From the NCBI GenBank assembly GCA_001793095.1, contig MGHG01000009.1:90391-154390 (forward strand): a stretch of 64,000 bases of DNA. The letters run 5' to 3'. The DNA comes from Candidatus Woesebacteria bacterium RIFCSPLOWO2_01_FULL_39_23. GTDB lineage: Bacteria; Patescibacteriota; Microgenomatia; UBA8517. The notes below the pieces were generated by a model. The model did no database searches, was not told where the DNA came from, and saw only the letters and a list, made by a program, of their open reading frames with translations. Each line of letters opens with the position of its first letter. Within the stretch, counting starts at the first letter, position 1. Of this stretch, positions 7,878 through 58,254 are shown piece after piece. A program made the position numbers and the translations under genes.

Positions 7878-8105
7878 GAATATATTCTATGAAAAAAACT
7901 ATCGTTTTGTCAAGTTCGTTAAGTGCCTTAAAGATTATTGAAGAGTGTAGTGAAAATAAGGAGAGTGACGATAAAGACGATAAATGGGAAGAAGTATAAA
8001 AGTACGGCGATATTATTATAAGGATGCTTGGGGTAAATATGAATTTTATTATCCATTAAATAAAATTATAAATAATAATTCGGGGAATTGTAAGTTAGAG
8101 TTATG

Positions 8106-8188
8106 TGCCCTCGAGAGGATTTGAACCTCTACCCCTAAACGGGACAGGATCCTAAATCCTGCGCGTCTGCCAATTTCGCCACGAGGGC
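8106..8188 (-). tRNA. tRNA-Leu (anticodon TAG), type II
   Basis: Cloverleaf reconstructed by hand. It has a GCCCTCG/CGAGGGC acceptor stem, a long variable arm, a TTTAGGA anticodon loop and an A discriminator. Confidence 0.8.
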
Positions 8189-17418: not shown

Positions 17419-17503
17419 TATAGGTCATGTATTATACATTATTAGGGATAATTATAAACATAATATGGGATATTAATTAAATATGTACTAACTTAAATGT
17501 TAT

Positions 17504-17661
17504 GACATCCTCCCCGCCTTGAAAGGCGGGGTTTCCTTCAAAGGAGGATGATACTTCGACAGGCTCAGTATCATGCTGAGTATTATCGAAGCATGACATA
17601 TCAGCGTTCAATTCATCCCCGGGCTGAAAGCCCGGAGTTTTCTTGAATGCTGTTATAAGCC
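17504..17661 (+). repeat. Modular structured intergenic element, copy B
   Basis: Same module order as copy A, with compensatory stem changes (CCCCGCC-TTGAAA-GGCGGGG against CCCTGCT-CTTACA-AGCAGGG). Confidence 0.65.
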
Positions 17662-18037: not shown

Positions 18038-18112
18038 TTATGTAATATAGTTAATGATTAGCTAATTTAATAATTCGTGGCCCAAGATTCCTCTGCTTCA
18101 AACGGAAATTTG

Positions 18113-18185
18113 TGACCCAGGGTAGAGTCGAACTACCAACCTACTCGTTAGAAGCGAGTTGCTCTGTCCATTGAGCTACTGGGCC
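18113..18185 (-). tRNA. tRNA-Arg (anticodon TCT)
   Basis: Cloverleaf built by hand: GGCCCAG acceptor, CTTCTAA anticodon loop, GGTAG-TTCGACT-CTACC T-arm. Confidence 0.8.
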
Positions 18186-18299: not shown

Positions 18300-18614
18300 G
18301 AAGTAATAAAGAAAATTTAATATTATTACAGGGTAGTTGAGTCTGACTCGCTTGACTTTAATTTATATAAGGTCATATAATTCAGAAAGTCGAAATAAAC
18401 TAAAAGCGTTTGAACTTGGCTAACACCGAGTGAGCTTAAGGAAGAAATCCATATTTGGAAATTAGAACCTTGCGGGAAGTGCCCGTTACAGCACAAAGGG
18501 TTTGCTGCCTGAATAAGTCGATAACCTAAAGAGAAAATAAGGGTGGTACCGCGGGTTTAGAAGACTCGCCCCTTTTCCGAATGAATTTGTTTCGGAGTGG
18601 AGGCGAGTTTTTTT
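18300..18614 (+). promoter_or_regulatory. T-box riboswitch leader (transcription attenuation) upstream of the aminotransferase
   Basis: Canonical T-box sequence AAGGGTGGTACCGCGGG at 18539-18555. A terminator follows (CTCGCCCC...GGAGGCGAG + T7 at 18565-18614). The Stem-I-like hairpin 18349-18408 has a 3'-side internal loop ...AAAC CUA A|AGCG. Confidence 0.65.
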
Positions 18615-19769
18615 ATGGTTACAAAAAATATTGGTAAAATAGAACCTTCACCCACTTTAGAACTAGCTGCAAAAGCAAAACAACTTCAATCGGCCGGTGT
18701 TTCCGTGATAGATCTATCTCTTGGTGAACCAGATACTATTACTCCCGAACATATAAGAAGAGCAGCGATACTTTCTATAAAAAAAGGCTTTACTCACTAC
18801 ACCAATACAGCTGGAGTTCTTGAATTGAGGGAAGCAATTACTAAAAAATTATTGACTGAAAACAAAGTTAAATATACACCTAAAGAAGTAGTTATTGGAG
18901 TAGGAAGTAAGCAACTTCTCTATCATGCCTTTCAGGTGTTATGCGAAAAGGGTGATGAAGTTTTATTGCCCGTTCCCACATGGAGTACTTACTTTGAGCA
19001 GATTAAGCTTTCTAAAGCGACACCTGTCTTAGTACGACTAAAACCACCATTTAAATTAAAAGCATCAGATTTGCTCGAAAAAACCACTTCAAAAACTAAA
19101 GTTATACTATTAAATACCCCTTCAAATCCCACAGGTGCAGTTATAGAAAAGAAAGAGTTGGAAAAGATCGCAGACATTGCTGTTAAGAAAAATATTTTTG
19201 TAATTTCCGATGAAATTTATGAGAAAATTCTCTACTCTGGGAAGCACTATTCTATTGTTTCGTTTGGGCATGATATTAAACAACAAACAATTACAATTAA
19301 CGGATTTTCAAAGGCGTATGCTATGACTGGTTGGAGAGTGGGGTATGCTGCGGGTCCAGAAGAAATCATTGAATCCATGGTTGCTTTGCAAAGTCAGACG
19401 ACTTCTAATACCTCATCGATAAGTCAGATGGCAGCTCTTGCTGCCATCAATGGACCTCAAAAATCTGTGCATTTAATGTTAAAAGATCTCAAAAGGCGAC
19501 GTGACATTATCTTGAAACTTCTTTTTGAAATTGATGGTTTATTTATTACGCGGCCTGAAGGGGCATTCTATTTATTTGTGGGTATAGAGAAGCTACTTAA
19601 TAAGAAATATCCGACATCATCTATTTGGTGTACTAAGCTATTAGAAGAAAAGGGTGTGGCACTTGTTCCCGGTGAAGCATTTTTATATCCTAGATATTTC
19701 CGCCTCAGTTTTACTAATTCTATAACTAATATTTCTGAAGCGGTGAGTCGCATAAAAAGTTTTATTTGA
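18615..19769 (+). CDS. Class I (fold-type I) aminotransferase, aspartate/aromatic family
   Basis: NTPSNPTG, SDEIYE and a GFSKAYAMTGWRVGY-type PLP-lysine region. The ATG at 18615 sits right after the leader terminator; the ORF-track start at 18597 lies inside the terminator. Confidence 0.8.
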   Translation: MVTKNIGKIEPSPTLELAAKAKQLQSAGVSVIDLSLGEPDTITPEHIRRAAILSIKKGFTHYTNTAGVLELREAITKKLLTENKVKYTPKEVVIGVGSKQLLYHAFQVLCEKGDEVLLPVPTWSTYFEQIKLSKATPVLVRLKPPFKLKASDLLEKTTSKTKVILLNTPSNPTGAVIEKKELEKIADIAVKKNIFVISDEIYEKILYSGKHYSIVSFGHDIKQQTITINGFSKAYAMTGWRVGYAAGPEEIIESMVALQSQTTSNTSSISQMAALAAINGPQKSVHLMLKDLKRRRDIILKLLFEIDGLFITRPEGAFYLFVGIEKLLNKKYPTSSIWCTKLLEEKGVALVPGEAFLYPRYFRLSFTNSITNISEAVSRIKSFI

Positions 19770-19773
19770 AGCT

Positions 19774-21282
19774 ATGACAAGAAAAATACCGTCAACTATG
19801 ATTTCTCAACACCCAGATCATGCAAGTAAACCTTATTGGCTGGAAGAAGAGTTTATTGGAACTCACAACGAATCTAAAGAGTGTTTTTTATCTTTTTCTG
19901 AGCTGGGTTCCTCTGAATATAAATGGGACTGGGAAGGAAAACTTGTCGATGAGTCAGTTGTAGAAAGGCTATTCATGGATCATTATGACTATTTTCAAAA
20001 ATATCAATTAGGTAAAGAAAAGTTTCTTACATTTCGTTTGCCTAACCCAAGAGTAGAAAGCGAATACAGACTGGGTCGAGCGTTTATGGGTCTACTCAGC
20101 GCTGCCGGTTTAGCTAAAGGAGTGGGTTTACACACACCTCCTTTATTTGAGGCTATACTACCAATGACAGAATCTGCAAAAGAGATAATTGAAATACAAG
20201 AAGCGTTTGCAGAAATATCTTCACTTAAACACCGTTTAAATAGTTCTAAAAACGGTTCATTGAAGCATGTTGAGTTAATACCTCTTTTTGAAAAAGTAGA
20301 CACGATTATAAGATCAGATGAAATTTTGAATGAGTATATTGATATACACAAGAAAAAGTTTGGAAGACAGCCTGATTATATAAGACCTTATATTGCGAGG
20401 TCTGATCCGGCTCTAAATTCAGGATTAATTCCGACAGTATTAGCAATTAAAATGGCTCTCTCCCGCTATAGACGATTCGAATCGGTTAAAAACATTAAGC
20501 TATATCCAATAATCGGTTCTGCTTCGCTACCTTTTCGGGGTGGGCTTACCCCAGAAACAATAGGTAATTTTACAAGGGAATATGGGGGTGTAAGAACGGC
20601 ACTACTGCAAAGTGCTTTTCGATATGACTATGATAAGGACAAAGTAATAAAAGCCATAAAAGAATTGGAGTCTATCCTCCCTTATACAAAAGCGGTAGAG
20701 ATATCAAAAGTTGAGGAAACAAAATTAATGAAAACAATTTCTCTCTTAGAGAAGGATTATAAAGAGACCGTTGAAGAAATAGCTACCATTATTAACGATA
20801 TTGCATCGAAACTACCTAAAAGAAGAGAACGCGTCCAACATATAGGACTATTTGGCTACTCAAGAGGCGTTGGTAGAGTGAAGTTGCCAAGAGCAATTGG
20901 CTTTACTGGTGCTTTATATTCTTTAGGTGTTCCTCCTGAAATTATTGGGACAGGGCGAGGTCTTAAGAAAGCTGAGGAATTAACACTTTTGAAATATATT
21001 GAACAGCATTATCTTAACCTAAAGCAGGATCTTATTAAAGCAGGTTTGTACTTGAATAAGGATAACTTATATAAGTTATCCTGTTCAAACCCAATATGGA
21101 CTGGGGTAATGGAAGATGTAAAGTATATTGAGCAATTTTTGGGTAAAGAACTGGGGCCTCAAAACACAGATCATGTAGAACACTGTAAAATAACTGGTAA
21201 AATATTTAAGTTACTCGTTGCAGGAAAGGATTTCAGCCAGGAATTATCACAGGCGGCGGTATTGCGAAAAAGTATAGGTTAA
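19774..21282 (+). CDS. Phosphoenolpyruvate carboxylase, archaeal type (PepcA)
   Basis: N-terminal ...STMISQHPD, FRLPNP, IELIPLFEKVDT, YPIIGSASLPFRGGL and LLQSAFRYDYD match archaeal-type PEPC signatures. About 500 aa. Confidence 0.8.
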   Translation: MTRKIPSTMISQHPDHASKPYWLEEEFIGTHNESKECFLSFSELGSSEYKWDWEGKLVDESVVERLFMDHYDYFQKYQLGKEKFLTFRLPNPRVESEYRLGRAFMGLLSAAGLAKGVGLHTPPLFEAILPMTESAKEIIEIQEAFAEISSLKHRLNSSKNGSLKHVELIPLFEKVDTIIRSDEILNEYIDIHKKKFGRQPDYIRPYIARSDPALNSGLIPTVLAIKMALSRYRRFESVKNIKLYPIIGSASLPFRGGLTPETIGNFTREYGGVRTALLQSAFRYDYDKDKVIKAIKELESILPYTKAVEISKVEETKLMKTISLLEKDYKETVEEIATIINDIASKLPKRRERVQHIGLFGYSRGVGRVKLPRAIGFTGALYSLGVPPEIIGTGRGLKKAEELTLLKYIEQHYLNLKQDLIKAGLYLNKDNLYKLSCSNPIWTGVMEDVKYIEQFLGKELGPQNTDHVEHCKITGKIFKLLVAGKDFSQELSQAAVLRKSIG

Positions 21283-21414: not shown

Positions 21415-22488
21415 GTGCAAAATATTACGGTTAGTCCATCAACAAAAAACGGTTATGAATTCCCCAAAAAGGTAGGGATTGTCTATAGCGATGTTAAAAG
21501 AGAATATTTTCCTACGGAAGCTCAATACCTAACTGAAAAAGATGCCGATAAAGATGCCAAAACAATTGCTTCATATTTAGATAAATTAAATATTGAAGTA
21601 TACCTTTATGCAGGGAATTCTCGCTTGACAAAATTTCTCAAGAAAGCTAAACCGGACATGGTGATAAATCTTGTCGATTCTGTAAAGGGTTTTGAAAGTT
21701 TAGCGTCTTCAATTCCGGGGGTTTTGGAGCTTCTGGATTTTCCTTATACAGGAGCAGACATCTTGGGCATGTCTTTGGATACAAATAAATTTTTAATAAA
21801 AAAAATTCTCCAGCAAAACGGCGTACCGGTTCCCCATTATCAACTTATTACTAGCCCAAATGACTTTATCGATCCGACTCTACGTTATCCGTTAATCTCG
21901 AAATTAAACGAAATTCACGGCGCGGTTGAGATAACAGAAAATTCAGTATCAGATACTGAGAAACATTTAAAAGAGAGACTGAAGTTTTTAATTAATACTT
22001 ATAAGCAGGGTGTTTTAATAGAGGAGTTTATTGTTGGTCGTGAGGTTACTGCAATACTATTGGAGGGGCTCAATAAAAAGGTTTATCTTGCTGAGAAGGT
22101 TTTTAAAAAAACTGATGGGAAATATATTTTTTCAACTTTCGAAGACCAGTGGCTTAAAAAAGGTTCTGAGACGTTTGTTTACGAAAAATATGAAGACCCG
22201 ATATTAAGGGAGTATGTTAAACGGGCTTTTGATGTAGCCAAGATGTATGATTACGGAAAATTTGATGTAAGAATTGACCAATCCGGTCGTTATTTTTTCA
22301 TCGATTCAAACTGCAATCCGGCATTCGGGCCGAAAGAACTCGACGTTGCGATGTCAACAATTCTTGACATGTATGGAGTAAATTTCCAGGAAATTTTAAA
22401 AAGACTACTCTTGAATACCATGCGAGATGCCGCTGGTAAAGAAAGGCTGCCATATACTACAAGTGAGAAAGATATTTCCTCGAATTAG
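21415..22488 (+). CDS. ATP-grasp domain protein (D-Ala-D-Ala ligase-like fold)
   Basis: EEFIVGREVTAILL and GKFDVRIDQSGRYFFIDSNCNPAFG resemble ATP-grasp C-terminal motifs. Confidence 0.5.
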   Translation: MQNITVSPSTKNGYEFPKKVGIVYSDVKREYFPTEAQYLTEKDADKDAKTIASYLDKLNIEVYLYAGNSRLTKFLKKAKPDMVINLVDSVKGFESLASSIPGVLELLDFPYTGADILGMSLDTNKFLIKKILQQNGVPVPHYQLITSPNDFIDPTLRYPLISKLNEIHGAVEITENSVSDTEKHLKERLKFLINTYKQGVLIEEFIVGREVTAILLEGLNKKVYLAEKVFKKTDGKYIFSTFEDQWLKKGSETFVYEKYEDPILREYVKRAFDVAKMYDYGKFDVRIDQSGRYFFIDSNCNPAFGPKELDVAMSTILDMYGVNFQEILKRLLLNTMRDAAGKERLPYTTSEKDISSN

Positions 22489-38556: not shown

Positions 38557-38667
38557 GGTTATAACAGCGTTCAAGAAAACTCCGCTCTTCAGGGCGGAGA
38601 TGAATTGAACTCTGATATATCGTCCTCCTTAGAGAAACCCCGCCCTTGAGGGCGGGGAGGACGTCAT
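38557..38667 (-). repeat. Modular structured intergenic element, copy D (minus orientation, lacks the central palindromic module)
   Basis: The reverse complement reads GACGTCCTCCCCGCCCTCAAGGGCGGGGTTTCTCTAAGGAGGACG ATATATCAG AGTTCAATTCATCTCCGCCCTGAAGAGCGGAGTTTCTTGAACGCTGTTATAACC. This aligns module-by-module with copy B. Confidence 0.6.
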
Positions 38668-38993
38668 TTAGAATCCTGCCAGAGACAATACATCGCAACA
38701 ACCCATATTCTCTCCTCAGGATGGCTCCAAGAACCATTTCCTCCTTCTACAAAATATTTATAAGTGCCGCCTTCTTTATCTCTTTTAATTTTCATCAATC
38801 GGCCTCCCCGATCAATTCCTTGAACCGTCTCTGCTCCCCTTACAAAACGCCTTCTTAAGGCCTGTGACGCACGCTCATAGGCGTTCATATCGTCCATTAG
38901 CCTCTTTGCGGTTTTATCTAAACTATCAGCGCTGGTGATGTCTAGTGAGTTTAAATAATTCGAGGTTTTAGGAAATGTTTTATGTAAATCCAT
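38664..38993 (-). CDS. Hypothetical protein
   Basis: 109 aa ORF. Confidence 0.3.
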   Translation of the reverse strand: MDLHKTFPKTSNYLNSLDITSADSLDKTAKRLMDDMNAYERASQALRRRFVRGAETVQGIDRGGRLMKIKRDKEGGTYKYFVEGGNGSWSHPEERIWVVAMYCLWQDSK

Positions 38994-49306: not shown

Positions 49307-49417
49307 ATTATTATCCCGAAACTATACCGAAAATTATACCATATGGTTGTTATCTACTTTCTTTGAGCGGTTGCAAACATATTTATCATGGGTATAACAT
49401 GTAAACGAAAGAAAAAC

Positions 49418-50680
49418 ATGGACAGCAAAATTAGATCTATTAAAGCGAGAGAAATATTAAGCTCAAACGGTTTACCGACACTTGAAACAACTGTCTTGTG
49501 CGCTAATGGTACAAATTCTTCTGTTTCTATTCCCTATGGAGAATCTGCCGGTAAATACGAGGCTGTGACGATTTTTGATGAAGATAAGTCAAGATATGAA
49601 GGCTACGGCATGCTTAAGGCAGTCAAAATTGTAGACGAAATTATATCCCCTCAACTTGCGGGAGTTGATGTAACCGATCAAAAACAGATTGATCAGAAAC
49701 TTTTTGATTTAGACCCAACACCACAAAAAACTAATTTGGGCGGTAATAGTCTGTTGAGTGTTTCTCTTGCGTGTGCTAAAACTGCCAGCGTTATCGAAAA
49801 GCTGCCTCTTTATATTTATATTCAAAAAACTTACGGATTCGATGGTGGTATTACTAACATGCCTAAACCAAACATGGTCGTGTTAGAAGGAGGAAAACAT
49901 GCTGATAATTCAACAGATTTTCAGGAATATTCTGTTTCAGTAATCGGAAAATTTAACTGTTCTGATTCTGTGAGAGCCGGTATAGAAATATACAGATCTT
50001 TAGGGCGTGAGCTAAAGCTTAACGGTTTCAATATTAATGTCGGAGCAGAGGGTGCGTATGCGGCGGTCTCAATGAAATCGAACATTGACCCTTTGCTATA
50101 TATAAAAAATGCAATAGAAAAAACTAAATATATTCCCGAAAAAGACGTAGGAATTTCACTCGATCCTGCCGCTTCTGAATTTTACGAATCGGGTTTTTAT
50201 AATTTGTCTAAAGATCAGAAAAAATTTAATTCATCGGAGATGATTACTTATTACGAAAATCTTTTAGATAATTATCCGATAATTTCGATAGAAGACGGAT
50301 TGGCAGAGGAGGATTGGGACAACTGGAAGCCTTTATTTACGAAACTCAGTGAAAAAATAATGATCGTAGGTGATGATCTAACGGTAACCCAGGAAAAAAG
50401 ATTAAAAAGAGCGATCGACGAAAAGACGATAAATTCAATAATAATTAAGCCTAATCAGGCGGGAACCTTAACTGAGACTATGGCGACAGTCATGTTGGCT
50501 AAAGATAATAATATTAAAACAATAGTTTCGCACCGCGGAGGTGGCGAAACGACTGATACTTTTATTATAGATTTAGCTGTAGCAATAGGAGCGGAATATG
50601 TTAAGGTCGGTCCAACCAGGGGCGAACGAACGCAAAAATATAATCGATTGATGGAAATAGCCGCCGAATTAAATCTGTAA
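49418..50680 (+). CDS. eno: Enolase (paralog 1, more divergent)
   Basis: IKAREILSSNGLPTLE..., KPNQAGTLTET, SHRGGGETTD. The start is moved to the Met at 49418 (MDSKIRSIKAREIL). Confidence 0.75.
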   Translation: MDSKIRSIKAREILSSNGLPTLETTVLCANGTNSSVSIPYGESAGKYEAVTIFDEDKSRYEGYGMLKAVKIVDEIISPQLAGVDVTDQKQIDQKLFDLDPTPQKTNLGGNSLLSVSLACAKTASVIEKLPLYIYIQKTYGFDGGITNMPKPNMVVLEGGKHADNSTDFQEYSVSVIGKFNCSDSVRAGIEIYRSLGRELKLNGFNINVGAEGAYAAVSMKSNIDPLLYIKNAIEKTKYIPEKDVGISLDPAASEFYESGFYNLSKDQKKFNSSEMITYYENLLDNYPIISIEDGLAEEDWDNWKPLFTKLSEKIMIVGDDLTVTQEKRLKRAIDEKTINSIIIKPNQAGTLTETMATVMLAKDNNIKTIVSHRGGGETTDTFIIDLAVAIGAEYVKVGPTRGERTQKYNRLMEIAAELNL

Positions 50681-50701
50681 TTTTCTTCTTATATTTCCCA
50701 C

Positions 50702-50730
50702 TTGACATATTCGGGTTTTGTTAGTATATT
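50702..50730 (+). promoter_or_regulatory. lexA promoter (TTGACA-N17-TATATT)
   Basis: Near-consensus hexamers about 80 bp upstream of the lexA ATG. Confidence 0.5.
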
Positions 50731-50742
50731 GATTTAACTCAT

Positions 50743-50792
50743 AACTTAGAACTCAAATGTTAAAACTAAAATACAATTTTGAGTTATAAGTT
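50743..50792. promoter_or_regulatory. 15-bp inverted repeat AACTTAGAACTCAAA ... TTTGAGTTATAAGTT (20-bp spacer) between the lexA promoter and start; candidate LexA operator
   Basis: 14 of 15 positions are complementary. The repeat lies in the promoter-proximal leader of the autoregulated repressor gene. Confidence 0.4.
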
Positions 50793-50811
50793 TCTAGTTT
50801 TGTGTTGACTT

Positions 50812-51435
50812 ATGGCACCAGTAATTTACAAACGCCAAGGACAGATATTAGATTTTATCAGACAACATATTCAATCTACCGGTTCAGCCCCCACATTAAA
50901 GCAAATAGCAGAGGCAATCGGGGTTTCTTCACTCGCTACAGTACACGAGCATTTAACCACGCTTGAAGAAAAAGGTTTAATTAAACGAAAATACGGAAAA
51001 AATAGATCTATAAAACTAGCCGATAATGATATTAATTTTTCACCCGAGGGTATTGCTGTCCCAATTCTTGGATATATTGCAGCGGGGACGCCCATCGAGC
51101 CCTATACTGATCCAAATGCGAGCATGGCAATACCCTACTCTTTCGTTACAGGAACAAAACGCACATTTCTTCTTCAGGTAAAAGGCGAGTCTATGATTGA
51201 AGAACAGATTCGGGATGGCGATTATGTGGTAATTGAGCAGTCTGAGATTGCCAATAATGGAGACATTGTTGTAGCGCTACTTGATAATGGTATGGCAACA
51301 TTGAAACGATTTTTTAAAGAAGCTACACGCATACGACTTGAGCCGGCAAATGCTAAAATGAGTCCTATATTTGTTAAAAATGTAAGAATACAGGGAAAGG
51401 TCGTAGGGCTTATAAGGAAGTACACTAGGAATTGA
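50812..51435 (+). CDS. lexA: LexA repressor (S24 peptidase)
   Basis: N-terminal wHTH (LTTLEEKGLIKRK) and C-terminal S24 with VKGESM and a catalytic K. 207 aa. Confidence 0.85.
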   Translation: MAPVIYKRQGQILDFIRQHIQSTGSAPTLKQIAEAIGVSSLATVHEHLTTLEEKGLIKRKYGKNRSIKLADNDINFSPEGIAVPILGYIAAGTPIEPYTDPNASMAIPYSFVTGTKRTFLLQVKGESMIEEQIRDGDYVVIEQSEIANNGDIVVALLDNGMATLKRFFKEATRIRLEPANAKMSPIFVKNVRIQGKVVGLIRKYTRN

Positions 51436-52075
51436 CTTCCCCTTTTTTTCTTTTAGATTTAGCAACCTCTAGTAAAATTGGAAATAGTGAAATAATTATT
51501 ATTACGCCAATAACTATTTCGAAATTATTCTTAACAAAAGCTATATTACCGAAATAATAACCTCCAAAGACAAAAATGGAAGTCCACAGAAATCCGCCAA
51601 CGATATTGAATATTATAAATTTTGTGTACTGCATGATGCCAACGCCGGCCACAAAAGGTGCAAATGTTCGGATTATCGGAACAAAGCGTGCAAGAATAAT
51701 TGTTTTTCCTCCGTGCTTAGTGTAAAATGCCTTAGTCTTATCTAAATAATCTTTTTTTATAAATTTAGGGTCTTTTTTAAATACGGCCGGACCTATTTTG
51801 TAACCGATCCAATAATTTACTGTATCTCCAAGAACAGCAGCAATAAAAAGCACGAGAAATAAAAGATAGATATTCATCGAGCCGAGTGCTGCTAAGGTAC
51901 CTGCTGCAAAAAGTATCGAATCTCCCGGAAGAAAGGGCGTAATAACAAAACCGGTTTCCATAAAAATTACAAAAAATAAAACGACATATACTCCTACCCC
52001 GACATGTGAAATTAATATCGATAAATAGTTATCAAGATGAAGTAAGATGTCGACAAGATAGGAAAAATTTATCAT
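51425..52075 (-). CDS. DedA family membrane protein
   Basis: The VTPFLPGDSILFAAG motif is a DedA/SNARE-associated signature. About 6 TM helices. Confidence 0.7.
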   Translation of the reverse strand: MINFSYLVDILLHLDNYLSILISHVGVGVYVVLFFVIFMETGFVITPFLPGDSILFAAGTLAALGSMNIYLLFLVLFIAAVLGDTVNYWIGYKIGPAVFKKDPKFIKKDYLDKTKAFYTKHGGKTIILARFVPIIRTFAPFVAGVGIMQYTKFIIFNIVGGFLWTSIFVFGGYYFGNIAFVKNNFEIVIGVIIIISLFPILLEVAKSKRKKGEVNS

Positions 52076-52079
52076 GAAG

Positions 52080-53351
52080 TTACATCCGACCGCTTAGAAG
52101 TTCAACTTCGATTGCAGATAAGCGATTATATTTAGCGACCCTTTCTCCCCGCGACGGAGCACCAAATTTGACAAAATCCGCTCCAATACCTACAGCGAAA
52201 TCTGCTATAAACCATTCGTTAGTTTCTCCGGAACGATGAGAGACAATTATTTTCCACGAAGACGCAAGTGCTTTTGAGATAACCCTTAACGTTTCCGTAA
52301 TTGTTCCTAATTGATTTGGTTTGACAAGTATTGCATTACAGGCTTTCTCTTTAATCGCTTTGACTACTCTTTCCGGATTTGTCGCGAGCAGGTCATCACC
52401 GACAACGGTTAGTTGCTCAGACATCTCAGTATAAAGCTTTTTCCAGCTATTCCAGGCATCTTCCTGAAAAGCGTCTTCGAGTATTGCTAGATGATACTGA
52501 TTATTTAAGGTTTTATAGTATTCAAGCAAATCATCATCAGTCAAAGGAGACGATTTATCCCTTATTGAGTAATTACCATTTTTATAGAAGACAGATGCGG
52601 CAGCATCAAGACCGAGAAAGACATCGCGACCCAATTGATATGGGGTTTCTTTAATTGATTCAACGAGTATTTCGAAAGCGTCAGCATTAGTAAAAAGATT
52701 GGGGGCATATCCGCCCTCGTCACCAACAGAATGAATTGCTCCCCGTCTCTTAAGGTTGTCGCCGATAGTCATGTAAGTTTCGACGCCCATTCTGAGTCCT
52801 TCGCTGAATTTTTTGGAGGTTGCTGGTATTACATGGAATTCCTGAAAATCCAGATTACCAGCACCATGTAATCCGCCATTTATCATGTTAAAAATAGGAG
52901 TTGGTATGTGTTCTTTTGCTTTGATACCGAATTTAGCAGCCATTTGGTTAATGTAGGAGTATAAGGTTTTACCAGCAGAAAGTGATCCAGCCTTTGCGGT
53001 AGCTATCGAGACTGCGAGGATTGCGTTAGCACCGTATTTTGATTTATTTTTTGTTCCGTCGGTATCGATGAGTTTTTTGTCTATTACTTCCTGGTCGATT
53101 GGATCCATGCCTATAAGCACCTGACCTAAGATATTATTTACATTGTTAACCGCTTTTAATACACCCTTACCGTGATATCTTGAAGTGTCCTGATCTCTAA
53201 GCTCAAGAGAATCGTATTTTCCGGTCGGTGTAGCTGACGGTACTGAGGCAATAGCCACTTGTCCGGTATCTAAAAGACAAGACGCTTCAACAGTAGGAAT
53301 GGCTCGCGAATCCAAAATTTCTCTTGCCCATATTTTTGATATTTTTGACAT
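52080..53351 (-). CDS. eno: Enolase (paralog 2, canonical)
   Basis: SKIWAREILDSR, KPNQLGTITET, SHRSGETNEWFIADFAVG. 423 aa. Confidence 0.85.
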   Translation of the reverse strand: MSKISKIWAREILDSRAIPTVEASCLLDTGQVAIASVPSATPTGKYDSLELRDQDTSRYHGKGVLKAVNNVNNILGQVLIGMDPIDQEVIDKKLIDTDGTKNKSKYGANAILAVSIATAKAGSLSAGKTLYSYINQMAAKFGIKAKEHIPTPIFNMINGGLHGAGNLDFQEFHVIPATSKKFSEGLRMGVETYMTIGDNLKRRGAIHSVGDEGGYAPNLFTNADAFEILVESIKETPYQLGRDVFLGLDAAASVFYKNGNYSIRDKSSPLTDDDLLEYYKTLNNQYHLAILEDAFQEDAWNSWKKLYTEMSEQLTVVGDDLLATNPERVVKAIKEKACNAILVKPNQLGTITETLRVISKALASSWKIIVSHRSGETNEWFIADFAVGIGADFVKFGAPSRGERVAKYNRLSAIEVELLSGRM

Positions 53352-53353
53352 AG

Positions 53354-55639
53354 TTACTTGTGCGAATTTAATGCAATTGCTTTTTCTGATTCATATATTA
53401 CACTTCTAACACGATCAATAGCATCAGGATTTACGGAAATGCTTGTTACTCCATATTTTATCAGTTTTTTAACAAAGTCTTCATAAACCGAGGGTGCCTG
53501 TCCGCAAATTGACGAGGTGACATTGGCGGCATTACAGTGTTTAATTACGCGCCGTAATGACCATAAAACAGCTGGAGATCTCTCATTAAATGATTCAGCA
53601 ACTTCGGCGTTATCTCTATCGGTTCCTGTTATAAGCATCGTGAGGTCATTCGATCCTATCGATACCCCATCAATGCCGACTTTTAAAAACTCGTCAATTA
53701 AAATAACATTTATCGGTATTTCAACCATCATCCAAAATTTAAATGTAGGACTGTCGAAAAGTCCAACCGAAGTGACAATTCTTCTGACCCTAGAAAGCTC
53801 CTCTGGCGATCTGACAAATGGAACCATTAGCCACAAATTTTTATATTTTTCGCGAACAATTTTTATTGCCTGTAGCTCTAGGTTAAATACTTCCGGATTT
53901 GAAATATAGCGAAATGCACCCCTAAAACCTAACATTGGATTTGCTTCCTTCGGCTCCCAGGCCTCTCCTCCCGGAAGCGAGCGATATTCATTAGTTTTAA
54001 AGTCTGTCGTCCGATATACAACAGGTCGGGGATCGAACGCCTTACAAAAAGTAATCATATCCGAAGCAAGTTTTTGAATAAAATGCTCTTGTTTTTTCTC
54101 TTTAATGGCTTCTTTTGGATGAATTCCTATATTTGCTATCATAAATTCAGCTCGCAATAGCCCGACGCCATCGATATTAAACTTTGATACCTCAAGTGCT
54201 CTTTCGGGTTCGGCTAAATTAACATACAAACGCGTGGCAGTCTTTAATTTTTTAAGTTTTAATTTTTTATGAGGTTTTACATTAATTTCTTTGACAATAT
54301 TGCTTCCTTCATAAATAAAACCCTTACTACCGTCAACAGTTACGATCGTATTTTCTTTTAATTTTTTAGTAGCCTCTTTTGTGCCTACGACACAAGGTAC
54401 GCCCAGCTCCCTACTGACAATCGCTGCATGCGAAGTTAAACCGCCTTCATCTGTTACAATTCCTGCGGCCTTTTTCATCGCCGGAACATAATCGGGAGAG
54501 GTCATTTTAGCTACGAGTATATCGCCCTGTTTTACTTTTTCAATTTCTTTAGGACTCTTTAACACCTTAACGATTCCTGTTCCGATACCTGGACTTGCAG
54601 CGGTACCAACAAGTATCGGTATTGCCGCCCCCATCATGGTCTCCTTTTTGATTTTACTTATTTTTTTGACATCACCTATTGTTGTTACCGGGCGTGTTTG
54701 GACTATATAGATTTTGCCTTTTTCCTTAGCCCACTCGGTATCTTGAGGGAAGTAATAATGTTTCTGAAGTTTATCGGATATTTTTGCTAATTCAATTATG
54801 TCGCTATCACTAATTTTTTGCTTTGTTTGTAATTTCGAAGGGACTTTTGCTTCTTTAGTCACTAACCCTTTTCGTATATAAGCCACTTTTTGGTCGGCAA
54901 TTTCTTTTGAAAGTACTGAATAGGTATCTTTTTGAACAACAAACTTATCCGGAACAACCGATCCCTGAACAATATATTCTCCCAGTCCCCAGATTGCTTC
55001 GATAATGATTTTATCTTTTTCATTTGTAACTGGATCGATTGAAAACATAACACCCGACGCTTCGGACTGAATCATTTTTTGAATAATGACCGAGATCTTT
55101 ACTTTATCGTGATCAATTTTATTCTGTACTCGATAAAATATTGCTCTGGCTGTAAAAAGAGAAGCCCAACATTCTCTTACGGCCATAAGTAAGTTATTGA
55201 AGCCTTTGATATTTAGGAAGGTTGCCTGTTGTCCGGCGAATGAGGCACCGGGTAAATCTTCAGCTGTAGCGGATGACCTGACAGCGACAAACGCCTGTTT
55301 GAAAGTTCCGGACAATTTTTTGTAAGCAGATGTAATTTCGCGGGCAACATCATCAGGTATTTGTGAATTATTAACAATTTTTTGTATTTTTTTGGAAGCT
55401 AGATCAAGTTGTTCGGCGTCATTAACATCAACTTGTTTAAGGAGGTCATTTATTTGTTCTGTAATCCGGTTAAAATCCAAAAACTTTTGGTATGAAGCGA
55501 CGGTTATTGCAAAGCCGCCGGGCACCGGAAAACCAGCTTTTGCCATTTCTCCGAGGTTCGCACCCTTTCCTCCTACAAGAGCAAGGTCATTTTTATCGAT
55601 ATCTTTAAAGAATAAAATTAGGTCAGTATTTAATGTCAT
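53354..55639 (-). CDS. ppsA: Phosphoenolpyruvate synthase (pyruvate, water dikinase)
   Basis: N-terminal ATP-grasp-like ...GGKGANLGEM..., phospho-His domain GGLTSHAAIVSRELGVPCVVG and a C-terminal PEP-utilising TIM barrel. 761 aa. Confidence 0.8.
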   Translation of the reverse strand: MTLNTDLILFFKDIDKNDLALVGGKGANLGEMAKAGFPVPGGFAITVASYQKFLDFNRITEQINDLLKQVDVNDAEQLDLASKKIQKIVNNSQIPDDVAREITSAYKKLSGTFKQAFVAVRSSATAEDLPGASFAGQQATFLNIKGFNNLLMAVRECWASLFTARAIFYRVQNKIDHDKVKISVIIQKMIQSEASGVMFSIDPVTNEKDKIIIEAIWGLGEYIVQGSVVPDKFVVQKDTYSVLSKEIADQKVAYIRKGLVTKEAKVPSKLQTKQKISDSDIIELAKISDKLQKHYYFPQDTEWAKEKGKIYIVQTRPVTTIGDVKKISKIKKETMMGAAIPILVGTAASPGIGTGIVKVLKSPKEIEKVKQGDILVAKMTSPDYVPAMKKAAGIVTDEGGLTSHAAIVSRELGVPCVVGTKEATKKLKENTIVTVDGSKGFIYEGSNIVKEINVKPHKKLKLKKLKTATRLYVNLAEPERALEVSKFNIDGVGLLRAEFMIANIGIHPKEAIKEKKQEHFIQKLASDMITFCKAFDPRPVVYRTTDFKTNEYRSLPGGEAWEPKEANPMLGFRGAFRYISNPEVFNLELQAIKIVREKYKNLWLMVPFVRSPEELSRVRRIVTSVGLFDSPTFKFWMMVEIPINVILIDEFLKVGIDGVSIGSNDLTMLITGTDRDNAEVAESFNERSPAVLWSLRRVIKHCNAANVTSSICGQAPSVYEDFVKKLIKYGVTSISVNPDAIDRVRSVIYESEKAIALNSHK

Positions 55640-55700
55640 ATCCAGCTTATATCATAGTGGCAGATAATTATTTCTTTTTCAACTACATTCTTTTGCTTAA

Positions 55701-56789
55701 TTATTTACCGAGGGGTTGGCCAAGTTGTTCTTTGAAGTAGTCAACCCAGGGAATTGGAGCCGGATCGGTGTCATAGAGCATGGACAAGTAAAAATTCGTA
55801 TATGCTCCAAATTGAATAAGTTCGAACGATTGTGTAAGTTTATTTATAGAATTCAAAGTATATTCAAAATAACCAATATTATTTTTTTCAACAACTTCCT
55901 TTGTAATAGTAAACCTCTTTTTAATCCTTTCCGGATAAAGATTCGAGTCGGCGAAAATGAAAAAAAGGTTTTGGGGGTTCATTTCCGGATGTTTTAATCC
56001 CTCCATAAGATGATGATTAAGTTCAGGAATAAAAACATCCGTAGACATATTTTTTGTATTTTCATTCAACTGATTATTTACAGTATGCATTGCTCCGATT
56101 AGGTGACCGGAAGAGACGTAGATAATAACTTTTCCATACATGCTTCTTGCAAGTTGTTTGGCGGGATTATCGTTTTCAGTTATTTCAGAATGGCTTTTTG
56201 TTTGAATAGTTTTCATGATTTCTGCAGACTCATCAATGTCGCTTTTTTGGAGTTTGAAAAGACCAACTTTTGAGGCTAAAACCAATTGACCGACAATTGA
56301 ATAGCCGATGGCCATTCTAGGCTGATTTGATGGATTATATTTTGCATCAATTATATAACATGGAACACCTTTCTCTTGAGCTAGCTTTATAAGACTATTA
56401 CCACTCCCGATAGCCATCCATTTGCATTTCCTATCTATTGCTTCTTTGGCATTTTGCAACGTTTCCTCGGTTTCTCCAGAATAACTCGAACATATAACTA
56501 GCGTATGAATGTCACTAAAACCAGGTAAGTTATAGTCATTCACTCTAACTAAAGGCAATCTTAGGTCACTTCCATATACAGATTCAATTACTCGTGCACC
56601 CAAACCGCTGCCTCCCATACCACACATAACAACATTTTGGATATCTTTGTAAAAGTCGGGTACGTCAACCTTCTCTGCTTCCTCCCACGCATGGAGACAT
56701 TGGTCAGGTAGCTCGTCAATAGATCCCAACACATTCTGGCTATCGAGTTTTTTAATGTCTTCACTTGCATCAATATTTACCATCTTCAT
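55701..56789 (-). CDS. SIS-domain bifunctional phosphoglucose/phosphomannose isomerase (archaeal-type)
   Basis: Two SIS-like halves (MCGMGGSGLGARV; ICSSYSGETEET). 362 aa. Confidence 0.55.
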   Translation of the reverse strand: MKMVNIDASEDIKKLDSQNVLGSIDELPDQCLHAWEEAEKVDVPDFYKDIQNVVMCGMGGSGLGARVIESVYGSDLRLPLVRVNDYNLPGFSDIHTLVICSSYSGETEETLQNAKEAIDRKCKWMAIGSGNSLIKLAQEKGVPCYIIDAKYNPSNQPRMAIGYSIVGQLVLASKVGLFKLQKSDIDESAEIMKTIQTKSHSEITENDNPAKQLARSMYGKVIIYVSSGHLIGAMHTVNNQLNENTKNMSTDVFIPELNHHLMEGLKHPEMNPQNLFFIFADSNLYPERIKKRFTITKEVVEKNNIGYFEYTLNSINKLTQSFELIQFGAYTNFYLSMLYDTDPAPIPWVDYFKEQLGQPLGK

Positions 56790-56820
56790 ATGACAAGGTC
56801 CGACCTTGTCAATAGTTTAT

Positions 56821-58254
56821 TTATTTTACAAAATCTATATTCACACAAAGGGGATCATCCCAAATAACTTCTTTGTAACTATGTAGTATATCTTTAATAT
56901 ATTGCCTCCTTTTTTCAAAAACATCCTGTGTCTTAGCCTCAAACTTGACTGTAATATATGGTCCATTTTGTGAATATCGTATAACTAACATTCCATCTTC
57001 AAAATCTGCACGTATACCATCATCACCAGGAATTACATTTTCGTCAGTAATTTCCGCCCCAGAAAAATCTTTTTTAAACTTTACTGATAAGTCTTTTATT
57101 ACAGCTTTCTTTTTACCGTCCGGGCATCCAACTTTTATTTCAGGAGAAGATATAAATTGAGGAAAAGTTTCGTAAAGTTGACTTAGAGTCATATTTTTTT
57201 CTGATAAATATTCAAGAACTCTCAATGTTGCATATGTGCCATCGTCGTGCCCATATGCATTATCGGCGAAAAAGAAGTGTCCTGAAAGTTCTCCACCAAA
57301 AGCTGCACCCACTTCAGCTATCTTAGCCTTTATAAAAGCATGTCCAGTAAGCCACATAACGGGAGTACCTCCATTTGCTTTAATAACTTCTCTTACAACT
57401 TGAGAGCAAAGTGTATTGTATACAATTTTGGAATTAGGGAATCTTTCGAGAATGTCTTTTGAAAAAATTGCGACGGCTACATCGTTCCAAAGTACGCGAC
57501 CCTTCTCATCAACAAAACCAATTCTATCGCCATCTCCATCGTATGCCAATCCTATATCTGCTTTATTCTCTAGAACTACCTTCGACAAACTTTCCATTAA
57601 TTTTGCGTCAGTCGGATCTGGTGTTCCTGCGGGGAAAGAACCGTCTACTCCGGAATTAATTTCTATTACTTCACAACCTGTTTTTCTAGCAATTTCAGGA
57701 TTGAAGAGAGTTGTAGTACCTTTATGAGTATCCATAACAATTCTGTATGACTTTTTTATTTCAATTCGTTTTAAAACATCATTAATATAATCTTCTTTTA
57801 TATCTGCATTCGTAACATTACCCACCCTTTCAGATTGAAAAAAGTTTTCAGTTTCAACAATACGTTTTAATTCTTGAACCTCTTCCGGACCGGTAGTCAA
57901 AGAGAATCCTATTGCTAATTTAAAACCATTATAATTCCATGGATTATGAGAGGCGGTTATCATAACTCCGCCGTTAGTTTGAAAACGATATTGCCCATAA
58001 TAAACCATTTGAGTCATAACCATTCCCAAATCTATAAGATCGATTCCACAACTCGCTAGACCTTTTATAAATGATTCATGATATGAAGGTCCGCTTAATC
58101 TGCAGTCATAACCAATAACAGCTTGTTTTATCTTTCGCTTTCTAAGGAATGTTCCGTAAGCTTTTGCAATTGCTTCGACTTTAACTGGATCCAGATCGAC
58201 GTCAACAATTCCTCTTATGTCATAATTTCTAAATATTAAAGGATTTATTTGCAT
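56821..58254 (-). CDS. Phosphoglucomutase/phosphomannomutase (alpha-D-phosphohexomutase)
   Basis: Active-site ITASHNPWNYNGFK, Mg site DGDGDR and a sugar-binding GELSGH. 477 aa. Confidence 0.85.
   Translation of the reverse strand: MQINPLIFRNYDIRGIVDVDLDPVKVEAIAKAYGTFLRKRKIKQAVIGYDCRLSGPSYHESFIKGLASCGIDLIDLGMVMTQMVYYGQYRFQTNGGVMITASHNPWNYNGFKLAIGFSLTTGPEEVQELKRIVETENFFQSERVGNVTNADIKEDYINDVLKRIEIKKSYRIVMDTHKGTTTLFNPEIARKTGCEVIEINSGVDGSFPAGTPDPTDAKLMESLSKVVLENKADIGLAYDGDGDRIGFVDEKGRVLWNDVAVAIFSKDILERFPNSKIVYNTLCSQVVREVIKANGGTPVMWLTGHAFIKAKIAEVGAAFGGELSGHFFFADNAYGHDDGTYATLRVLEYLSEKNMTLSQLYETFPQFISSPEIKVGCPDGKKKAVIKDLSVKFKKDFSGAEITDENVIPGDDGIRADFEDGMLVIRYSQNGPYITVKFEAKTQDVFEKRRQYIKDILHSYKEVIWDDPLCVNIDFVK

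Follow-up and report, generated by a model that had tools for sequence, protein, structure and literature searches.

Which transfer RNA (tRNA) a T-box riboswitch reads, and to what end, is the question raised by the leader of a class-I aminotransferase gene in Candidatus Woesebacteria bacterium RIFCSPLOWO2_01_FULL_39_23, which lives in groundwater and has a very small genome. The leader runs up to the start codon at position 18615 of a 64,000-nucleotide (nt) stretch of contig MGHG01000009.1, hereafter the window, to which all coordinates refer unless a relative is named. An earlier note on this DNA had recognised a T-box here, assigned a CUA (Leu) specifier to it and considered the enzyme as a possible leucine transaminase. 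The T-box leader indeed precedes the aminotransferase gene, which it presumably controls. Comparison with related leaders, by contrast, points to another ligand: the T-box probably senses tRNA-Asn by means of an ultrashort Stem I, acts through a terminator and governs an operon for aspartate synthesis.

Architecture of the leader

A search with the Rfam T-box model RF00230 matched positions 18400-18576 with 50.6 bits. The E-value is 3.2e-10 when referred to the region alone and 3.9e-8 across the entire 64-kb window, in which this leader is the sole RF00230 T-box. The default mode of Rfam returned no T-box match; the match appears in E-value mode with permissive filters. We compared the surroundings of the aminotransferase gene (aspC-like, hereafter aspC) in 16 relatives from the Candidate Phyla Radiation (CPR), chosen from the homolog list and designated here by L numbers. 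A full homologous leader is present in L100, L001, L019, L017, L018 and L015, which together with that of the window makes seven in all. The window leader is composed of the following elements:

18404-18437, + strand: ultrashort Stem I, with a base helix AAGC/GCUU, a kink-turn (K-turn), a 6-bp helix ACUUGG/CCGAGU and a 6-nt apical loop CUAACA
18438-18471, + strand: Stem II, with the S-turn strands AAGAAA (18442-18447) and AAUUAGAA (18460-18467)
18473-18494, + strand: Stem IIA/B pseudoknot, with the F-box CCGUUA at 18483-18488, IIA CGGG/CCCG, and IIB GUG(C) with (G)CAC
18495-18539, + strand: linker purines AAAGG, Stem III (18498-18526) and an A-rich 3' flank, the hairpin being predicted in all seven leaders
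18540-18573, + strand: T-box sequence and antiterminator, with helix A1 AGGG/CCCU, a 7-nt bulge UGGUACC (18544-18550) and helix A2 GCGGG/CUCGC
18564-18614, + strand: intrinsic terminator, a hairpin at 18564-18607 followed by U7 (18608-18614), the 5' arm overlapping the 3' strands of the antiterminator

The T-box sequence AGGGTGGTACCGCG occupies 18540-18553, or extends to 18554 when written AGGGTGGTACCGCG(G), just where the earlier note had located it. It matches the conserved motif AGGGUGGNACCGCG as AGGGUGGUACCGCG at 18540-18553, with minor variation across the seven orthologous leaders. The antiterminator, which alone folds at -12.6 kcal/mol, fits helices A1 and A2 with a 7-nt bulge UGGNACC; all five pairs of A2 covary, as do two of the four pairs of A1. 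The terminator arms CUCGCCCC (18565-18572) and GGAGGCGAG (18599-18607) pair in a hairpin of -26.9 kcal/mol (z = -5.6), and none of 200 shuffled sequences folds as well. Since one stretch serves both as 5' arm of the terminator and as 3' strand of the antiterminator, the two structures are mutually exclusive, and the computed folds thus bear out the antiterminator/terminator alternative proposed before. The U-run does not end 2 nt short of the ATG, as had been described: U7 abuts the ATG at 18615 directly. A simple terminator scan with a loop limit of 8 nt gave no match, the loop of the window hairpin being longer than this limit.

In the window, the K-turn of Stem I has a GUUU bulge and tandem G.A/A.G pairs; L001 and L018 share the canonical tandem G.A of the window, and the other leaders carry variants of it. 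Stem I is also seen in the minimum free energy fold, and among the seven leaders its upper helix covaries at five of six pairs, with the loop-closing G-C pair invariant. What marks a long Stem I is missing from the window leader: it has neither an internal specifier loop nor an AG bulge, nor a double T-loop platform at the distal end to contact the tRNA elbow. The promoter sits too close upstream to leave room for them.

Downstream of Stem I, the AAGAAA strand of the S-turn is invariant in all seven leaders, and the AGUAGAAC-like strand is near-invariant, with the A-UA-AAC columns fixed and a variant ACUAGAAC in L018; both the proximal and the distal helix of Stem II covary. The IIA/B pseudoknot contains the CCCGUUACAG F-box, as in the ultrashort-Stem-I class, and its IIB pairs covary at two of three positions (GUG/CAC, AUU/AAU, GUA/UAC and GUU/AAC). 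The 5' flank AAAGG of Stem III matches the RRRxG motif (PMC7583486). All T-box elements are intact in the window leader.

In a hand-registered alignment of the core, 95% of the cells pair and 17 of the 29 pairs show compensatory changes, a result equalled by none of 500 shuffles. The covariation score is 0.50, compared to at most 0.23 for controls with slid partners. The register was set by hand with N-padding, since MAFFT on full leaders mis-registers the two length classes of Stem I. Using automatic alignments, RNAalifold recovers the antiterminator including the bulge of 7 nt, and likewise the base of Stem I, its upper helix with the 6-nt loop, distal Stem II and IIB.

The specifier codon and the ligand tRNA

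The apical loops of eight Stem I sequences, those of the seven full leaders and of L012, read as follows:

Window and L012: CUAACA
L100: CCAACA
L001: AUAACA
L019: UUAACA
L018: ACAACA
L015: AAAACG
L017: UUGACA
18422-18425, + strand: predicted specifier, the Asn codon AAC at 18422-18424, and after it the conserved 3' purine A, from this loop comparison

Positions 3-5 of the loop read AAC (Asn) in seven of the eight sequences and GAC (Asp) in the remaining one, L017, and position 6 is always a purine; positions 3-6 are AAC-A in six leaders, AAC-G in L015 and GAC-A in L017. In all known T-boxes the codon is followed by a purine and then by the helix, and where a Stem II S-turn is present, a C is expected at the third codon position, the so-called 'C rule' (PMC7583486). 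The AAC reading is favoured because it fits both this geometry and the C rule. A frame at loop positions 2-4 was also tried and rejected: it gives UAA, CAA, AAA or UGA, which are inconsistent across the leaders and include stop codons.

The bulge of the antiterminator provides a second indication of the ligand. It is UGGC or CGGC in five of the seven leaders, and UGGU in the window. A C in the bulge requires G73 in the tRNA; G73 is the discriminator base of bacterial tRNA-Asn and tRNA-Asp, and tRNA-Leu has A73. The UGGC and CGGC bulges therefore call for a G73 tRNA, fitting tRNA-Asn or tRNA-Asp rather than tRNA-Leu, and the previous argument that UGGU implies an A73 tRNA does not hold for the leaders that carry C.

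The same loops could also be read at positions 4-6, as ACA (Thr; ACG in L015), such that the same short Stem I would sense tRNA-Thr. We regard this as improbable, despite a conservation that equals that of the AAC frame, ACA or ACG being found in all eight Stem I sequences, which is the first of several points that weigh against tRNA-Asn. The UGGU of the window would suit an A73 tRNA such as tRNA-Thr, but UGGC or CGGC in 5/7 leaders needs G73. Control of aspartate synthesis would still be sensible, as threonine derives from aspartate, yet the operon in L015 and L018 holds aspartyl-tRNA synthetase (AspRS) genes, not thrS. Moreover, the change from ACA to ACG in L015 would amount to an isoacceptor switch, whereas under the AAC reading one purine merely replaces another, and the change of position 3 from A to G in L017, a coherent switch from Asn to Asp, would be a coincidence. 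Unlike in known T-boxes (PMC7583486), the threonine codon would also touch the helix with no purine in between, and its third-position A would break the C rule that goes with the S-turn of Stem II, the motifs of which are seen here.

The promoter and the hairpin at 18349-18408

Upstream of Stem I lies a predicted promoter:

18352-18381, + strand: sigma-70-type promoter TTGACT-18-TATAAT, 11/12 match, with the -35 box at 18352-18357 and the -10 box at 18376-18381

These boxes put the expected start of the transcript near 18388, some 16 nt ahead of Stem I. A promoter with 10-12 of 12 matches is found in all eight orthologous leaders, with 13-24 nt separating its -10 box from the base of Stem I downstream; equally high scores occur in 0.4-3.8% of 90-nt windows of the same loci.

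It is in this promoter region that the earlier note had drawn a Stem-I-like hairpin (18349-18408), presenting CUA to a tRNA-Leu(UAG) with A73 and making the enzyme possibly a leucine transaminase. This model now appears extremely unlikely. The hairpin is drawable, with a centroid fold of -8.8 kcal/mol, but with z = -1.74 and 16 of 200 shuffles folding as well it is no better than shuffled sequence, and it holds the -35 and -10 boxes of the promoter kept in 8/8 leaders. Its closing helix takes bases 18404-18407 of the base helix of the true, covarying Stem I, which Rfam places at 18405-18434. The Stem I model thus puts another codon at the specifier position, an outcome that the earlier note had itself named as refuting its proposal, and the CUA at 18400-18402 falls 5' of Stem I, in the single-stranded 5' end. 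In the orthologous loops CUA is replaced by AUA, ACA, UUA, CCA, AAA or UUG, and it is AAC or GAC with the following purine that is conserved. In L019, the relative examined on this point, a gap of 13 nt between the end of the -10 box and Stem I leaves no space for a hairpin of this kind; in L100, the closest of the others, part of it may be present. A tRNA-Leu(TAG) gene with A73 is indeed encoded in the window, at 8105-8188 on the minus strand, and UGGU could pair with A73; nevertheless, it is not the supported ligand, 5/7 bulges having a C that needs G73, and the enzyme groups with the aspartate aminotransferases (AspATs) and is coupled to a phosphoenolpyruvate (PEP) carboxylase.

The presumed target operon

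The leader is followed by two closely spaced genes:

18615-19769, + strand: predicted class Ib aspartate aminotransferase (aspC-like), 384 amino acids, PF00155 at 1e-75, fold-type I
19774-21282, + strand: archaeal-type PEP carboxylase (ppc), 502 amino acids, starting 4 nt after aspC, PF14010 at 3e-128

The top NCBIfam matches of the aspC-like protein are AspAT models, with 393 and 360 bits, which lie below the equivalog cutoffs of 550 and 617. Its nearest PDB entries are nearly all AspATs, including those of Thermus and Thermotoga, Rhizobium AatA and the bifunctional aspartate/prephenate enzymes. The ppc product matches TIGR02751 with 462 bits, above the cutoff of 146. The two predicted enzymes together form a route from PEP through oxaloacetate to aspartate. 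The pair is kept in nearly all CPR relatives examined, and this lasting coupling to PEP carboxylase in one operon speaks for an AspAT role of the aminotransferase. The idea of a leucine transaminase is thus not sustained by either the family and PDB matches or the gene pairing. In L018 the operon extends beyond aspC-ppc to a gene for a non-discriminating aspartate-tRNA(Asn) ligase (468 bits, with a cutoff of 353), and in L015 to genes for a YbaK-like protein and AspRS.

A gene for an ATP-grasp protein (21415-22488, + strand), weakly similar to D-Ala-D-Ala ligases (90 bits compared to a cutoff of 243), lies 132 nt downstream of ppc. It is probably outside the regulated operon, since it is not conserved beside aspC-ppc in the relatives.

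The window that holds the PEP carboxylase operon also contains a PEP-supplying glycolytic cluster at 49388-58254. It has two enolase paralogues (49388-50680, + strand, and 52080-53351, - strand) and, beside them, an enzyme of the PEP synthase/pyruvate phosphate dikinase type with PPDK_N and PEP-utilizer domains (53354-55639), in addition to a bacterial-type phosphoglucose isomerase and a phosphoglucomutase.

Proposed mechanism and mode of regulation

Based on the predicted structures, we propose that transcription would start about 16 nt before Stem I, the apical loop of which would present AAC (18422-18424) with its 3' purine to the anticodon of tRNA-Asn(GUU). The 3' end of an uncharged tRNA would pair with the UGGU bulge and stabilise the antiterminator (18540-18573), allowing read-through into aspC-ppc. 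With a charged tRNA the antiterminator would fail, and the terminator (18564-18607 and U7) would form and stop transcription at the start codon. Transcripts that have been read through could refold, and the terminator 3' arm holding GGAGG might then impose an added block on translation.

The logic of sensing tRNA-Asn would lie in the route to asparagine. In lineages with a non-discriminating AspRS and an amidotransferase, tRNA-Asn is charged with aspartate, so uncharged tRNA-Asn would signal a shortage of aspartate, like tRNA-Asp. This route to asparagine on tRNA-Asn, by non-discriminating AspRS and GatCAB, is documented (PMC4206432). We propose that GAC (Asp) could stand in place of AAC in L017 because both tRNAs would report the same shortage. 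What the analysis establishes is the set of sequence elements with their conservation and covariation, the mutual exclusion of the two folds and the genes present; from these we infer the identity of the tRNA, the response to charging, the regulatory mode and, for the genome of the window, the transamidation logic.

Whether the 3' hairpin acts on transcription or on translation depends on where it stands relative to the ribosome-binding site (RBS), for which the window has one candidate Shine-Dalgarno (SD) motif:

18599-18603, + strand: SD-like GGAGG, 11 nt ahead of the ATG and within the terminator 3' arm, with the same arrangement in L018 and L015

All seven leaders have a GC-rich hairpin followed by U5-7 that competes with the antiterminator. 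The hairpin stands 10-129 nt from the start codon in four of them: it is 129 nt upstream of the ATG in L100, where the ATG has its own GGAG at -8, and in L001, L019 and L017 the SD-like purine motif of the 3' arm lies 21-34 nt from the ATG. In these four leaders the hairpin or motif is too far from the ATG for sequestration of the RBS. The three other leaders, those of the window, L018 and L015, have the SD-like motif within the 3' arm and no gap between U-run and ATG. Taken together, tRNA-dependent antitermination of transcription is favoured over RBS sequestration as the mode suggested by these arrangements, and an added translational block in the window, L018 and L015 is plausible as a secondary effect.

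A mainly translational mode in the style of the actinobacterial class II T-boxes, with the 3' hairpin as a reversible RBS sequestrator and the U-run as incidental, is unlikely in our view. It would agree with the fact that an ultrashort Stem I with Stem II and IIA/B has so far been tied to translational control, but a GC-rich stem with an immediate U5-7 in 7/7 leaders is the signature of an intrinsic terminator. The GGAGG- or AAGG-type motifs in the 3' arm, with the ATG right after the U-run, would serve such a mode in the window, L018 and L015; even there, the spacing of 11 nt in the window is at the long end for an SD, and in L001, L019 and L017 the motif is too distant to be one. The hairpin of L100, far upstream of an ATG with its own GGAG, fits still less.

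Beyond the equally conserved threonine frame, further points weigh against a terminator-type element that senses tRNA-Asn. The UGGU bulge of the window fits A73 and, by wobble, G73. No gene for tRNA-Asn, tRNA-Asp or tRNA-Thr was found in the window or any fetched locus, and the anticodon and G73 of the presumed ligand tRNA-Asn are taken from general knowledge of this tRNA. The main covariation count draws on only seven to eight related sequences in a hand-set register, and the effective apical loop may be of 6 or 8 nt, as its closing G-C pair is without variation. In addition, the 50.6 bits of the RF00230 match are below the gathering score of 93, so the search proposed in the earlier note yielded its match and not a score above the cutoff; the Rfam alignment replaces 75 of the 219 model positions, all in Stem I, by 7 nt, which is the sole cause of the low score. 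A G.U wobble at the base of A2 has been named the primary steric sensor of the aminoacyl group (PMC7583486). This bulge-proximal pair is G-C in the window, and across the seven leaders it is G-C in five, A-U in L019 and G-U in L017, which leaves six of the seven, the window included, without the wobble. The G-C may be a tolerated variant, and an unrelated T-box core in L055 appears to have it as well. Finally, reviews tie the length of Stem I to the mode, a long one with an elbow platform being transcriptional and a short one translational; in their view a transcriptional T-box depends on the elbow contact to capture its tRNA quickly, as the tRNA must be bound before the polymerase reaches the terminator. 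Termination control by an ultrashort-Stem-I architecture is predicted here and unproven.

Relatives and distribution of the leader

A protein of Candidatus Woesebacteria RIFCSPLOWO2_01_FULL_39_23 matches the aspC-like product at 100% identity, and the distribution of T-boxes thus extends into a small-genome lineage, as the earlier note had anticipated. Within the genome collection, a metagenome-assembled genome of Gottesmanbacteria comes closest, and a contig scan with the aspC-like protein gave only two close relatives. L001 (60.6 bits), L015 (31.2 bits) and L105 (29.4 bits) have sub-threshold RF00230 matches in the corresponding position. A profile hidden Markov model of the seven leaders found no further copy in 562 kb of fetched loci and the window. 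A metagenome scan with an alignment of 25 proteins returned mostly aminotransferases of other phyla with at most 46% identity, none of them with this leader. Besides the full leaders, the relatives fall into the following states:

L012-L014: apparently decayed leader, with Stem I kept and followed only by a hairpin and a U-run
L105: apparently decayed leader, with the 3' half kept and a tRNA-Pro(GGG) gene in place of Stem I
L101-L104 and L106: no leader

In L012 (2924-3003; the same in L013 and L014), the closest relative by its AspAT, which is 79% identical, the promoter is kept and the Stem I loop CUAACA is identical to that of the window. From Stem II onward the leader is lost, its place being taken by a short hairpin AAAUCCGC...GCGGAUUU with a U-run directly before the ATG, and a tRNA-Glu(CTC) gene lies just upstream of the L012 leader, which looks like a decayed T-box. 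L105 (2580-3000) keeps the 3' half of the T-box, comprising the 3' strand of Stem II, the F-box, Stem III, the T-box sequence and the terminator. Its tRNA-Pro(GGG) gene is at 2706-2782, and the first ~15 nt of this gene (GTCGGGGTGTGGCGC) are repeated about 125 nt further upstream, which suggests a partial duplication or rearrangement.

These decay products raise the question of whether the window leader is itself a non-functional remnant in a reduced genome, with aspC-ppc expressed constitutively or simply attenuated. A score under the Rfam cutoff, the L012 leader with Stem I only, the loss of Stem I to the tRNA-Pro gene in L105 and the several CPR orthologues without any leader would all be compatible with decay. 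However, the clean deletion in Stem I accounts for the low score on its own, every functional element of the window leader is intact, and the helices are kept by compensatory changes across leaders whose proteins share 59-71% identity. Moreover, a strong terminator with no route to antitermination would silence the operon. We therefore judge a remnant to be very unlikely, and retain a T-box that is predicted to be functional.

The full leaders also differ from each other in local insertions. An extra stable hairpin stands between Stem III and the T-box sequence in L001 (e.g. 2892-2916), L017 and L019, and is lacking in the window, L100, L018 and L015. In L015, another hairpin is inserted in the 3' side of Stem I and turns it into a three-way junction. 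L100 (2874-3000) has a 129-nt GC-rich, self-complementary insertion (CCCCCTTCGCGAAG...CTTCGCTTCGGAGGG...) between the terminator and the aspC start, not found in the window, which could be a small mobile or repeat element.

Other features of the window

The window has 13 scattered tRNA genes in 27 kb (8105-35067), four of them for tRNA-Leu and none for tRNA-Asn, tRNA-Asp or tRNA-Thr. The CCA end is not encoded in the A73-bearing tRNA-Leu(TAG) gene at 8105-8188 (- strand). A tRNA-Arg(TCT) gene at 18112-18185 (- strand) is divergent from the T-box promoter. In addition, two intergenic segments match the HgcC family RNA of Rfam below its gathering score of 50, and may be structured non-coding RNAs, as far as these matches indicate:

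17489-17636, - strand: HgcC-like match, 33.2 bits, E 7e-4
38581-38680, + strand: HgcC-like match, 28.5 bits, E 0.013

Implications

The findings place T-box regulation in the CPR and on a new type of target, an operon of PEP carboxylase and aspartate aminotransferase. They suggest that metabolically minimal bacteria still regulate their de novo supply of aspartate through tRNA charging. The Asn/Asp switch of the specifier among orthologues would illustrate cleanly how a specifier evolves in connection with the tRNA-dependent asparagine pathway, and a conserved family in which a strong terminator accompanies an ultrashort Stem I offers a natural test of the rule linking the length of Stem I to the mode. 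Such CPR elements would probably be missed by the Rfam gathering cutoff and by TBDB practice, in which the class II model was run only on Actinobacteria and on class I matches with a truncated Stem I (PMC7778990).

Beyond these points, a wider proposal can be made, which we hold tentatively and at slightly less than even chances. The leaders might represent a distinct CPR lineage of T-boxes that work co-transcriptionally without the elbow contact, use tRNA-Asn as a sensor of aspartate where asparagine is made on the tRNA, toggle between Asn and Asp specifiers, and employ one hairpin both as terminator and as mask of the RBS. If so, the Stem I platform would be no general requirement for termination-type T-boxes.

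Comparison with known T-boxes

An early survey of phyla recorded T-boxes only in Firmicutes, Actinobacteria, Chloroflexi, Deinococcus-Thermus and few Proteobacteria, and the survey of Wels et al. mentions no aminotransferase or carboxylase with T-boxes (both PMC2494555). Our literature search found nothing relevant on T-boxes in CPR/Patescibacteria and no T-box linked to an aspartate aminotransferase in a comparable way, an absence that in either case is no proof of novelty.

The window leader most resembles, in its decoding module, the ultrashort-Stem-I T-boxes of actinobacterial ileS genes, those of Mycobacterium tuberculosis, M. smegmatis and Nocardia farcinica, which are class II in TBDB. 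They share a short Stem I with a basal K-turn, a specifier with its 3' purine in the apical loop and the lack of a distal elbow-binding platform, in addition to the purine strand of the S-turn in Stem II, the IIA/B pseudoknot with the F-box, Stem III and the discriminator with its UGGN bulge. However, the ileS type is specific for Ile, stands before ileS and acts by SD sequestration without a terminator, whereas the window leader, from the CPR/Microgenomates, carries a predicted Asn codon (Asp in L017), precedes aspC-ppc and ends in a hairpin of -27 kcal/mol followed by U7. Sherwood et al. are said to have described in 2015 a translational mode for many of the actinobacterial short-stem leaders, though not for all. 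In the ileS ultrashort T-boxes, the lack of an elbow contact is made up for by Stem II and IIA/B (PMC7583486, PMC11297988, PMC7913692).

With the canonical class I T-boxes (RF00230), such as those of Bacillus subtilis tyrS and glyQS, the window leader shares the T-box sequence, the antiterminator/terminator pair with a U-run and the basal K-turn, and with the tyrS-type leaders also Stem II, IIA/B and Stem III. It differs from them in its Stem I, which has no internal specifier loop, AG bulge or distal double T-loop platform. The Firmicutes T-boxes for Asn and Asp on asnS/aspS-type genes sense the same class of ligand as that predicted here and have the same preference for codons ending in C (PMC7778990; PMC2494555). 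Compared to these T-boxes, which have a long Stem I and stand before tRNA ligase genes, the window leader has a short Stem I and stands before aspC-ppc.

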